Source: Enterobacteria phage mEp237. Taken from it: a stretch of 44,375 bases of DNA. The stretch lies in the sequence record NC_019704.1; one strand, given 5' to 3'. Within the stretch, counting starts at the first letter, position 1. Every line of letters starts with the position of its first letter. The notes under the pieces were generated by a model. It had not been told where the DNA came from. It did no database searches and saw nothing but the letters and a program-made list of their open reading frames with translations. Shown here piece after piece: positions 20,108 through 44,188 of the stretch. The position numbers and the translations under genes were made by a program.

Positions 20108-21511
20108 ATGCTTTATAACACCGGCACCATCGCCATTAATGGAAATACCGCCACCGGGACGGGTACAAACTGGACGGCACCGGCCAGCCAGGTCCGCGCT
20201 GGCCAGACGATTATCGTGATGTCTAACCCGGTGCAGCTGTTTCAGATTTCATCCGTGAACAGCGCCACGTCTTTGACGGTTACGCCAGTTGCTTCCCCGG
20301 CGCTGAGCGGCCAGAAGTATGGAATCCTTGTGTCAGACAATATCTCAGTCGACGGCCTGGCGCAGGCCATGTCTCAGCTCATCAAAGAGTATGACGAGAA
20401 TATCGGCGCATGGGAGACGTTCGCCACAACCTCAGCCAACCAGAACATTACCGTTACGATCAATGGCACCAGTTTATCAATCCCGGCTCTTGGGAAATTA
20501 CTGCAGAAGGGGGGCAACGGAGCTTTGCCGGTTAATCAAGGTGGTACCGGCGCAACGAATGCCGCAGACGCTCGCACAAACCTCGGTTTAGGCACATTCG
20601 TTACCCAGGAAGATCAGAGCATCGTCTATGGCCCGTCGCTGGATCATGCGCTTGTCGTACGAAAAGACGAATGGGGCGTCGTTGTTTCGGATAATGGTAA
20701 TCCGGTACCACTCGGAACCCGTTATGGCGGAACGGGGGCAAAAACACCTTTTGATGCAGCAACAAATCTGCAAACCATTAGATCCCTGACATATAGATTT
20801 GGCCCAGGAATGGACCCTACGTCAATATCATTTAAAAACACATCAGCATTTATAGTAGGACAGCAGGGCTATGGTCCTATCGGCGCTTTTCTGGATATCA
20901 CATCTTTCGATAATTCTGCAAGGATGCAGCTCTACGGGTGCTATGACTCACAAATGTTCCCGGGTAAAAATGCACTTGCCTACGCAACGTATAACCCAAA
21001 CGACCGTACCTGGTACCCAATTGCATTTGTAAGGGACACATCGAATACAACTGTCGATTCGAACGGTTTCATTAAATCAGCATCTCCAATAGTCAACGTT
21101 TATGGTGATGGGCGATACGAAACTAACGATGAATCAGAAGGGGTAAGAGTCACACGTCTGGATGTGGGGCAATACTACATTGAGGGATGTCAGGCGCTCA
21201 ATTCTGACGCTGCATGGGGCGGTATTGACGGAGGTTTTGAGATTCCCACTGACAGGAATAAGCAACCGCTGATATGGCTGGATTACGAGGTTAACGCCGA
21301 CGGCTCTGTGCTGGTAAAAACCTATCACCGCGAGCATCCTTCAGCGCCAGCATTTGCCAGGAATGAGCGCGCTGGATTGGCAGATGGCGAGCCGGTTGAC
21401 ATCCCGGCTGATCAGTTCGTCAGCGTTCGTGTAGAAATGCCAGCGAGTAGCATCTGGAATCAGAAACAGAAACAAACGGAAGAGGCTTTAAAGCAGGAAC
21501 AGGGGTCTTAA
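20108..21511 (+). CDS. Putative side tail fibre protein
   Basis: ATG at 20108 with GGAG 5 nt upstream (track start 20093 is a TTG); Gly/Thr/Asn-rich N-terminal region typical of tail fibres; sits after J. Confidence 0.7.
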   Translation: MLYNTGTIAINGNTATGTGTNWTAPASQVRAGQTIIVMSNPVQLFQISSVNSATSLTVTPVASPALSGQKYGILVSDNISVDGLAQAMSQLIKEYDENIGAWETFATTSANQNITVTINGTSLSIPALGKLLQKGGNGALPVNQGGTGATNAADARTNLGLGTFVTQEDQSIVYGPSLDHALVVRKDEWGVVVSDNGNPVPLGTRYGGTGAKTPFDAATNLQTIRSLTYRFGPGMDPTSISFKNTSAFIVGQQGYGPIGAFLDITSFDNSARMQLYGCYDSQMFPGKNALAYATYNPNDRTWYPIAFVRDTSNTTVDSNGFIKSASPIVNVYGDGRYETNDESEGVRVTRLDVGQYYIEGCQALNSDAAWGGIDGGFEIPTDRNKQPLIWLDYEVNADGSVLVKTYHREHPSAPAFARNERAGLADGEPVDIPADQFVSVRVEMPASSIWNQKQKQTEEALKQEQGS

Positions 21512-21606: not shown

Positions 21607-21873
21607 TTATAGGCCAACCTGGCGAACAGTCGGGAACTCTGAAACCAACCACATATCGGACTCTTCAAACATTTCCTCCAGCATGCGGTTCAGTTTTTCC
21701 CGATCGCTTTTGCTGGCATCGCTGTTTAAGCCGTTCGCCTGCATCGGCTTAACCTTCACTTCTGCATCCGGAAAGATCCGGTGCACTCGCTTTGTTAACT
21801 CATTCAGAATTATTTCTCTGGCACCTGTTAATCCTTCAACATTCCGTTTGTCGTACACCAACTCAACGAACAT
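21607..21873 (-). CDS. dinI: DinI-family protein (MsgA-like)
   Basis: Start MFVELVYDKRN with GGAGG upstream; resembles the remembered DinI-family MsgA sequence (KRVHRIFPDA); LexA box upstream. Confidence 0.8.
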   Translation of the reverse strand: MFVELVYDKRNVEGLTGAREIILNELTKRVHRIFPDAEVKVKPMQANGLNSDASKSDREKLNRMLEEMFEESDMWLVSEFPTVRQVGL

Positions 21874-21911
21874 ACCGCCTCCAAAGCAACAATGATTTTG
21901 CACGCAATTTA

Positions 21912-21930: not shown

Positions 21931-22125
21931 GTCAACGGTTGGGCACGTAGCTTTTTAAGGAAGGTTTTTGGGGCATGTATGGGGCATAAATGCCAGTTTT
22001 GGGGCATGGTTGGGACATTTTAACTCATATGAACTTAACCGAATTTCATATGGAGGCGTCTTATAATGCACTGATTAACCTAAAGAAAACACATGCTCTT
22101 GGGCGTTCTTTAGTGATTTTAAAAA

Positions 22126-22230
22126 TTACCGCGTCACGCAGTTAAAGTGACGGGCATACTCTTCAAGGCTGGTGATCCCCAACCGCACCCATTTAGGATG
22201 CGACCATTGCGGCAGACCGATGTAAATCAT
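22126..22230 (-). pseudogene. 5' fragment of a yecE-like (DUF72) host gene: 34 codons then stop
   Basis: Minus-strand translation [34 protein letters not shown] resembles a DUF72/YecE N-terminus (from memory) and ends prematurely. Confidence 0.55.
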
Positions 22231-22463
22231 AACGCGTGAAGGATCTCTTCCACGCTACGCACACGGGCGATGCGCGGGTAGATATGATTAATGCTGTTAT
22301 TGTGTTGCTCGGCGCTGGCGGCACTACAGGCGTCTTCGGCAATCACCAGATTAAAGCCAAGTTCCCAGGCATTGCGGGCGGTGGATTCAACACCGATATT
22401 GGTCGAGATCCCACATAACACAATTGTATCGATACCTCGGCGGCGTAACCGCACCTCGACCAT
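22227..22463 (-). pseudogene. 3' fragment of an isochorismatase-family hydrolase gene (yecD-like)
   Basis: 78-aa ORF with isochorismatase C-terminal signature ([28 protein letters not shown]...VIAEDACSA); no N-terminal half; reading frame broken just upstream. Confidence 0.65.
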
Positions 22464-22654
22464 ATTGCAGGATTTTACCGTTGGGTAATTTCATCCATCC
22501 ATCACCACTGGCAAAAAAAGCCATATCCGGTATCTGATTTTCCCCTGTTCCCACATCCCGTTTTGCCGCTTCTCCCAAACCAACCTTTCAAATATTTTTC
22601 TGAATCAGGTGATATTTCGCCTCTTCTCCTGTTTTTACAACAGGAGAAGCACTC

Positions 22655-23203
22655 ATGATTTACGGTTATGCCCGAGTATCAACAAACCACCAGGACACTG
22701 AATTGCAACTAACGGCGCTCAAGTCAGCTGGTTGTGAGAAAATTTTTGAAGAGCATGCCAGCGGGAGGAAATCGAATCGGCCGGTTCTAAAACGGCTGAT
22801 CGCCACTATGCAGCCGGGGGATGAACTGGTGGTCTGGAAGCTGGACAGGATAGGCCGCAACGTTCTGCATGCGCTGTTGATGTTCCAGCAGTTACAGGAA
22901 AAGGGTATCAACTTCCGCAGTATTACCGATGGCGTGGATCTCAAAACAGCCAGCGGCCGCTATAACTTTCGTAACATCCTTTCCGCAGCACAATATGAAT
23001 CTGATCTTAATAGCGAACGTACCTTAGCAGGGCTGGCCGTAGCCAGGGCAAAAGGGCGAGTTGGTGGTCGCAGGCCTAAGTTCACGGATGAGCAATGGCG
23101 GGAAATGGGGGAGCGGATGGCAACCGGTGAATCACGACAAAGCGTATCAAAAACGTATGGAGTAGGGCTCTCAACTCTGTATAAAAAGTTTCCAGCTAGC
23201 TGA
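22655..23203 (+). CDS. Serine recombinase, DNA invertase (Hin/Gin/Pin family)
   Basis: 182 aa; N-terminal YARVSTNHQ catalytic Ser motif, VVWKLDRIGRN, C-terminal HTH (GLSTLYKK); GGAG RBS. Confidence 0.92.
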   Translation: MIYGYARVSTNHQDTELQLTALKSAGCEKIFEEHASGRKSNRPVLKRLIATMQPGDELVVWKLDRIGRNVLHALLMFQQLQEKGINFRSITDGVDLKTASGRYNFRNILSAAQYESDLNSERTLAGLAVARAKGRVGGRRPKFTDEQWREMGERMATGESRQSVSKTYGVGLSTLYKKFPAS

Positions 23204-42825: not shown

Positions 42826-42932
42826 TCTTTATCCCTAGCAAGGGATAAAGCAACCATTATCCCCGCTAAGGGATAGGCGTTACAGCAGACACTCACCTAA
42901 TGCCTGTTGCCATTCAGCCAAGGAGCCAGCCT

Positions 42933-44087: not shown

Positions 44088-44188
44088 ATGGACGTTTAGA
44101 CGTCCAAATGGGTGCGAATCAAGTCGCATTCCAGCAAATGATAATCATTATCATTTGCGGGTCCTTTCCGGCGATCCGCCTTGTTACG

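Follow-up and report, generated by a model that had tools for sequence, protein, structure and literature searches.

Introduction

The invertases Gin, Cin and Pin, which serve the G segment of phage Mu, the C segment of P1 and the P segment of e14, belong with Hin to the Din family of enzymes of about 180-200 aa, whose hallmarks are a catalytic N-terminus joined to a C-terminal helix-turn-helix and two inverted 26-bp crossover sites with identical cores. Hin, Gin and Cin biochemistry has established that sites with unequal cores fail to religate after the 180-degree rotation, and in the Gin and Cin systems the Fis-bound recombinational enhancer lies within the 5' part of the invertase gene itself. 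DNA invertases are expected to be expressed at very low levels. Leader hairpins that sequester the Shine-Dalgarno sequence are known from other systems, namely the fold-back inhibition of the IS10 transposase and the mom mRNA of Mu, which is opened by Com.

Some lambdoid prophages carry a serine invertase without a usable segment of its own, and orphan invertases of this sort have been documented acting in trans (PMC12529663; Kutsukake 2006, as cited in PMC4272514). The closest described counterpart of the locus considered here is found in phage phi80, whose GenBank record (JX871397; Rotman et al. 2012) already labels the invertase gene, as pinL, and the palindrome in front of it, as the repeat 'IR3'. 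The record assigns no function to IR3 and annotates no crossover site. Just upstream of pinL, on the minus strand, it places an 'internal fragment, phage tail collar domain protein (pseudogene)', and it also annotates a DUF72 fragment, dinL, and the attP core just downstream of pinL.

Results

The invertase locus of mEp237

The window analysed here is the whole 44,375-nucleotide stretch of Enterobacteria phage mEp237 DNA (NC_019704.1), and sequence comparison showed the invertase locus to be about 98.7% identical to phage phi80 across this region. The features of the locus, in window coordinates, are as follows.

20108-21511, plus strand: side tail-fibre gene, 467 aa (ORF list; Phage_tail_C_2 PF25670, Pfam E 1.5e-60)
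20571-20596, plus strand: pixL, former left crossover site, CTCGCACAAACC TC GGTTTAGGCACA, PWM score 17.7 bits, encoding ..TNLGLG..
21607-21903, minus strand: dinI-family gene in the interior of the former invertible segment (Pfam DinI, E 7.6e-23; dinL in phi80)
22095-22448, no strand assigned: captured host DNA, a C-terminal fragment of yecD (isochorismatase) and a fragment of yecE (DUF72) (Pfam Isochorismatase, E 2e-21)
22441-22583, minus strand: relic of an alternative tail-fibre C-terminal cassette, its first 143 nt, starting at the crossover site (sequence similarity)
22570-22595, minus strand: pixR, right crossover site, ATATTTGAAAGG TT GGTTTGGGAGAA on the minus strand, PWM score 33.4 bits
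22608-22621, plus strand: small leader hairpin GGTGA-TATT-TCGCC with a 5-bp stem, 1 nt 5' of the palindrome (RNAalifold)
22623-22649, plus strand: perfect palindrome with an 11-bp stem and a 5-nt loop, CTTCTCCTGTT-TTTAC-AACAGGAGAAG (IR3 of phi80)
22655-23203, plus strand: pin, an intact Gin/Pin-type serine DNA invertase gene, 182 aa (Pfam; Mu Gin alignment)

A first-pass annotation of this DNA had described the invertase gene as intact, and the 182-aa ORF bears this out. Its product carries the Resolvase (PF00239, E 3.6e-39) and HTH_7 (PF02796, E 1.5e-09) domains of Pfam, in the Din-family arrangement of catalytic N-terminus and C-terminal helix-turn-helix, and aligns end to end and without gaps to Mu Gin over residues 1-181 (3UJ3, E 1.4e-56; 4M6F, E about 1e-56). 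The catalytic Ser9 is kept, with MIYGYARVSTN of Pin aligned to MLIGYVRVSTN of Gin at the YxRVST motif, and the alignment gives Pin the same STLYKK recognition helix as Gin. The 5' coding part of pin resembles the cin/gin enhancer region; a simple Fis consensus scan missed even the annotated P1 enhancer. Additionally, one cassette was found in both orientations among different genomes of the pin lineage. To judge from its sequence, the Pin enzyme looks functional.

The palindrome, the tail-collar pseudogene fragment, the dinI and DUF72 fragments and the position beside attP are the same in phi80 and the window. The two differ in the invertase, since phi80 pinL encodes only 172 aa whereas the window pin is intact: a TCA to TAA change (JX871397 position 24468; window equivalent 23172) deletes the final 10 residues and with them the recognition helix of the helix-turn-helix. 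Pin is accordingly dispensable for the phage, because the laboratory phi80 copy is truncated. They differ also in the tail-fibre gene, which in phi80 is without the 62-aa block that bears the TC-core left site of the window. A further 19 substitutions, clustered at 22927-23017, separate the window pin from phi80 pinL while the translated products are identical, and this patch suggests a gene-conversion tract.

Two crossover sites with unequal cores

The first-pass annotation had seen no flanking crossover sites and had proposed a genome-wide search for gix/hix-like 26-bp dyads, and the outcome of that search depended on the model used. The generic hix/gix consensus TTNTCNNAAACCNNGGTTTNNGANAA, with up to 3 mismatches allowed, had zero matches in the window, and a generic half-site search gave matches at chance level only. 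In their place we used a PWM made from the lineage's own sites (21 distinct crossover sites of the pin lineage). This family PWM picked out just two outstanding matches in the window, which are mutually inverted and 2.0 kb apart: a full-strength right site, pixR, and an inverted partner with a TC core, pixL. The flanking sites reported as missing are therefore present.

The pixR site lies 60 bp upstream of pin and its score falls within the range of functional sites (28-40.6 bits). Its plus-strand reading is TTCTCCCAAACC AA CCTTTCAAATAT, and all 26 bp are identical in phage SKA5, where an inverted partner sits 1.8 kb away. The similarity of other phages to the window starts abruptly at about 22569-22572, that is, at pixR. 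Moreover, the inner half and core of pixR are those of the inverted repeat of the e14 P segment (e14 sequence from PMC12529663).

The pixL site is the second-best PWM match of the window, standing above the shuffle maximum of 12.4 bits and the next match at 8.2 bits. Its constant-side half is identical to that of the relatives' functional sites, and its core is TC instead of TT; in the alignment, the intact relatives L049 and L046 (L numbers denote our compared loci) read CTCGCACAAACC TT GGTTTGGGAGAA at this position. Since the core of pixL is TC and that of pixR is TT, the established knowledge of Hin, Gin and Cin implies that productive inversion would be blocked or extremely rare. The Din-family pair of inverted 26-bp sites with identical cores is found in SKA5 and in L049 and is absent from the window.

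A TC core is typical of mEpX1-type systems, in which the right sites have the complementary GA core. The invertases of those systems have an MQIGY N-terminus, the cores TC/GA and a different leader that is without the palindrome. A homologue of the C-terminal domain of the window fibre (21044-21463), at 67-72% nucleotide identity, is present in mEpX1 (L005/L058, 3013-3401) and in L042 (2681-3100), in both cases as an inverted, silent cassette adjoining the invertase gene.

Remains of the segment and intact relatives

The N-terminal constant part of the tail fibre reaches about 20584 and is 88% identical to phi80 PHI80_25, and the PF25670 domain occupies the C-terminal part of the protein. Homology to the intact systems L049 (98%), L031, L046 and L086 spans cor and the stf N-terminus and stops at 20592, just past the left site. 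At the other end, the relic cassette has 93-95% identity to cassettes that Omnitron (L003) and L046 express in the opposite orientation, and is cut off by the yecD/yecE host fragment, with dinI farther on. The host fragment matches, at 96% identity, host DNA that is duplicated where Stx prophages have integrated at yecE, and its genes are annotated as pseudogenes in phi80 and in RefSeq.

An alternative C-terminal cassette, which the first-pass annotation had failed to find, is thus present as a 143-nt minus-strand relic fused to pixR. Its other statements on the segment hold: the window has no tfa gene, dinI and host-like fragments lie between the tail fibre and the invertase (Pfam, phi80 annotation), and there is no usable invertible segment in cis, given the unequal cores, the cassette stump, and the dinI and host DNA inside.

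We compared the locus with about 80 related IMG/VR loci together with SKA5 and Omnitron. At least 38 relatives have an inverted partner site with 0-1 mismatch 1.3-3.2 kb upstream, all but one of them within 2.1 kb; the same search found no such partner in the window, phi80, HK225 and some others. In SKA5, an intact stf-tfa / tfa'-stf' segment has at its right end pixR, a palindrome identical to the window's and an invertase of 79% identity, and the inverted partner, CTCTCGAAAACC TT GGTTTGGGAGAA, is located 1.8 kb upstream. Additionally, phi80-like prophages at yciI with the order cor-stf-tfa-tfa'-stf'-recombinase are common in E. coli genomes.

In a further group of loci (L044, L047, L050, L054 and L028/L057) the family similarity breaks off precisely at the AA core of the right site, about 70 nt upstream of pin, and the cassette-side half is unrelated, as in CAGCGGCATAGG AA CCTTTTTTATAA. 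Such endpoints at the AA core would be the expected trace of recombination with secondary (quasi) sites.

A conserved palindrome over the ribosome-binding site

The first-pass annotation had also noted a perfect palindrome with an 11-bp stem over the AGGAG ribosome-binding site of the invertase gene at 22623-22649, which is exactly what the sequence contains: the Shine-Dalgarno AGGAG (22642-22646) lies within the right arm, and the pin ATG is at 22655. The RNA folding that it had called for agrees, since the palindrome buries the ribosome-binding site in a 27-mer hairpin that alone is predicted at -14.9 kcal/mol (z = -6.5), a stability that none of 200 shuffles matched. Opening the Shine-Dalgarno would cost 14-15 kcal/mol in the pin clade, a value reached by at most 1 of 200 controls with shuffled upstream sequence; for the window pin the cost is 15.2 kcal/mol, matched by 1 of 200 controls. 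Among 61 phi80 genes, the ribosome-binding site of pinL is the third hardest to open (18.1 kcal/mol, median 8.5), and for the two genes that rank higher the printed stretch shows no clear Shine-Dalgarno close before the annotated start.

A search of the window for perfect hairpins with a minimum stem of 10 bp and a loop of 3-8 nt gave three palindromes; when the minimum stem is 11 bp, the expectation is 0.1 per shuffled window. The second 11-bp stem, GCAAATGATAATCATTATCATTTGC at 44134-44158, resembles the Fur-box consensus, and phi80 has a 'putative Fur-regulated protein' nearby. The remaining one has a 10-bp stem, CTTTATCCCT-AGCA-AGGGATAAAG, at 42827-42850.

The palindrome was found in every member examined of the 'MIYGY' invertase clade (at least 79% amino-acid identity), which extends over E. 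coli, Citrobacter, Trabulsiella, Kluyvera, Pseudocitrobacter, Shimwellia and Apirhabdus, and it is conserved in all of the 100-odd copies examined. The pattern TTCTCCTGTT-N5-AACAGGAGAA occurs in 89 IMG/VR stretches; all 78 that were newly fetched have it before a MIYGY-type pin, and among those stretches it is exclusive to that position. One such copy is L262 (IMGVR_UViG_2541047881_000004). The same palindrome, with identical arms, occurs in orphaned systems and in systems with an intact segment, so that it is a property of the lineage and unrelated to orphaning.

Conservation was assessed over 22 distinct leaders. Nine of the 11 stem pairs are invariant, and the outer U-A pair is changed to C-G on both sides in 3 of the 22, which amounts to one compensatory change; a single leader (one copy) has a C.A mismatch in the stem. 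The loop varies (TTTAC, TTCAT, TTCAC, TTTAT) and the 25-nt upstream spacer varies freely. RNAalifold predicted the main stem and the adjacent small 5-bp stem independently. In the small stem, pair 29-38 is C-G in 15 leaders and U.G in 7, which is the behaviour of plus-strand RNA, because U.G is tolerated only there. Loci at about 72% identity or less in genome contigs, a scan that covered 14 loci only, have unrelated leaders and added zero covariation. We make no claim for a variable third hairpin, CTGAATCAG / CCTGATAACCAGG, whose register is inconsistent and which overlaps the small stem.

Several further observations concern the leaders. In SKA5 (L002, 6001-6650, against window 22570-23203) the 86-nt leader from crossover site to ATG differs by 1 nt, whereas the entire 531-nt match, leader included, is 77% identical and the coding part is more diverged. 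Leader types A-E are shuffled relative to the invertase alleles. Homologous recombination may use the invariant palindrome and start region as a joint. A motif, CTGATAACC(A/T)GG, recurs some 45-55 nt ahead of the start codon in L048, L050, L054, L055, L091 and the 72%-identity clade L096-L099, whose leaders are otherwise unrelated; its role might be that of a promoter element or of a site for protein binding.

Discussion

Probable origin of the locus and proposed action of the palindrome

We consider it moderately probable that pin is the surviving right end of a decayed invertible side-tail-fibre segment and, jointly, that the hairpin holds Pin translation low. The segment would have been of the Mu G / e14 P type, with its interior since mostly replaced by dinI and host yecD/yecE DNA. 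The window is a mosaic here, in which a TC-core left site with its cassette has been joined to a TT-core right site with its invertase. Any inversion that remained would join the fibre to a 63-aa stump and give a truncated fibre, and the invertase is, to all appearances, functionally orphaned in cis.

In the mRNA, the leader hairpin would occlude the ribosome-binding site and keep Pin translation very low, and folding predictions make this the most likely, and best-supported, reading of the palindrome. Throttling of Pin by the hairpin fits, because very low expression is what is expected of DNA invertases. A sigma-70 consensus scan returned no plus-strand promoter upstream of pin, and it is by inference that we place the left arm in the pin mRNA and take translation to be reduced. 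Several further points weigh against the mRNA hairpin. The covariation is thin, consisting of one compensatory pair, and arms that are near-invariant beside strong divergence would suit a sequence-specific DNA-binding dyad as well. A stability of -14.9 kcal/mol is so strong that Pin synthesis in intact systems becomes puzzling. Furthermore, Din invertases as a family do not share the strong Shine-Dalgarno occlusion. The leaders of e14/P2-type pins, Mu-like gin and P1 cin have homologous but weak Shine-Dalgarno-pairing stems; those of the e14 type, Mu-like gin and the mEpX1 type are mostly equal to controls, and that of P1 cin is modestly stronger (5 of 200 controls). We dropped a general rule of Shine-Dalgarno-occluding stems in Din invertases, as the opening energies are mostly like those of shuffled controls. 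A literature search on the translational control of invertases returned nothing relevant.

Possible action in trans

A different view of the locus is that Pin is no dead relic and has been kept for acting in trans, on the e14 P segment, on the segments of P2-like and Mu-like prophages or on those of co-infecting phages. The gene is intact in the window and in many other copies that have no partner site, the recognition helix is that of Gin, and pixR has TTCTCCCAAACCAA in common with the repeats of the e14 P segment. A precedent exists in orphan PinQ, which inverts e14 in trans (PMC12529663). However, the pinL of laboratory phi80 has lost its recognition helix by a nonsense mutation with no known penalty, and Pin expression is predicted to be very low. 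Trans action of Pin on e14-type segments is plausible on these sequence grounds, and retention of the gene for such a role is a possibility that we hold tentatively.

The palindrome as a possible DNA operator and lesser alternatives

The palindrome could instead work as duplex DNA, as an operator through which Pin (at a non-cleaved autoregulatory site) or a host protein would control the transcription of pin. The pattern of conservation is what an operator would give, in that 9 of 11 pairs are invariant while the flanking leader is strongly diverged and the dyad centre, the loop of the hairpin, is free to vary. The arms open with TTCTCC, the outer motif of the family crossover half-site TTCTCCCAAACC, and the dyad spans 25 bp as compared with 26 bp for a crossover site. 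Non-cleaved accessory sites are familiar from the Tn3/gamma-delta resolvases, where subsites II and III of res are of this kind, and resolvases bind subsites of differing spacing. However, e14-type and mEpX1-type enzymes share the TTCTCC/TTCCC sites, and their leaders keep the anti-Shine-Dalgarno arm without a TTCTCC dyad. The palindrome is not among the top 12 PWM matches listed, of which the lowest scores 1.0 bit, and the adjoining small stem has a U.G wobble typical of RNA. As to a host protein, a LexA box is a CTG-N10-CAG dyad and the palindrome is CTG-N9-CAG, hence no LexA box; the phi80 record, moreover, predicts LexA sites only near dinL, and we rejected this candidate. Taken together, an operator of either kind seems unlikely. 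Its more specific form, in which the palindrome is a non-cleaved Pin-binding subsite, with TTCTCC motifs one bp closer than in a crossover site, and Pin represses itself, is quite doubtful.

Less probable again, and in our judgement improbable, is that the hairpin insulates pin, silencing read-through transcripts from the tail-fibre side while the gene's own transcripts, starting inside the hairpin, stay translatable; this would be a minor form of the mRNA reading, in the manner of the fold-back inhibition of the IS10 transposase. The architecture of intact systems is in keeping with this, since late tail-operon transcription there heads through the segment toward pin, and the leaders of e14/P2-type pins have a conserved extended -10-like TGGCATCAT that overlaps the left arm of their weaker stem and would place the start inside the loop. 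In these e14/P2-type pins (L105-L184), TGGCAT(C/G/T)AT, extended -10-like, is strongly conserved about 25-35 nt upstream of the ATG. Their own-promoter transcripts would then be without the anti-Shine-Dalgarno arm, in an IS10-like arrangement. However, the window's clade has no -10-like hexamer at the corresponding place, and its small upstream hairpin is RNA-like, which implies a start upstream of the left arm.

That the palindrome arose by chance or acts as an intrinsic terminator has nothing beyond the hairpin shape in its favour and is scarcely credible, since about 0.1 such hairpins are expected per window and this one is conserved in 100-odd copies, and since no U-tract follows the stem on either strand and the scan for terminators made no call. 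The intrinsic terminator was rejected on the same grounds, uncalled by the scan and with no T-run on either strand. An upstream ORF running across the left arm was likewise rejected, as only one leader type has it in frame and it is not conserved. Rfam covariance models gave no match up to E = 1 in 22450-22800.

Implications

The locus explains a recurring annotation puzzle, that of 'orphan' invertases at the ends of lambdoid prophages; here both former sites and the stump of a cassette remain legible. If the hairpin throttles translation, as we prefer to read it, it would set the inversion frequency in many relatives whose tail-fibre switches are intact, and it would also affect the strength with which prophage invertases act in trans, an action that a recent report ties to phage defence. 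If, on the other hand, the Pin-binding subsite were true, a Din-family invertase would have a resolvase-style accessory or autoregulatory site, possibly with a dual function in DNA and RNA. Our verdict is that the locus is ordinary overall and holds one uncharacterised cis-element; current concepts are unchanged, and a testable regulatory detail is added.

Comparison with known systems

The phi80 annotation already includes the pin gene, the palindrome and the pseudogene fragment, and trans activity of orphan invertases and Shine-Dalgarno-sequestering control are also known in themselves. What is new is the recognition of both former crossover sites, with their core mismatch traced to a mosaic of two invertase systems, and of IR3 as a leader element that is almost invariant, exclusive to this gene and altered in compensatory fashion at one pair.

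Beside the Mu G/Gin, P1 C/Cin and e14 P/Pin systems, the window has a Gin-like Pin (about 50% identity). As in Din-family segments generally, a crossover site stands where the constant part of the fibre meets the variable part, within the conserved coding motif for NLGLG; as in Mu and e14, the alternative cassette is on the opposite strand and abuts the invertase gene; and e14 has a half-site and core identical to those of pixR. Unlike the segments of Mu, P1 and e14, that of the window is non-invertible, with TC and TT cores, a cassette stump of 143 nt, no tfa, and dinI and host DNA inside.

In being a serine invertase of lambdoid-prophage type without a usable segment of its own, Pin resembles PinQ and PinR of E. 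coli K-12 and Fin of Salmonella Fels-2, although PinQ is only distantly related (38% to PinE; PMC12529663). With IS10 and mom the locus has in common a ribosome-binding site, that of a potentially harmful DNA-rearranging or DNA-modifying enzyme, enclosed in a stable stem, which in the case of pin is predicted from the sequence.
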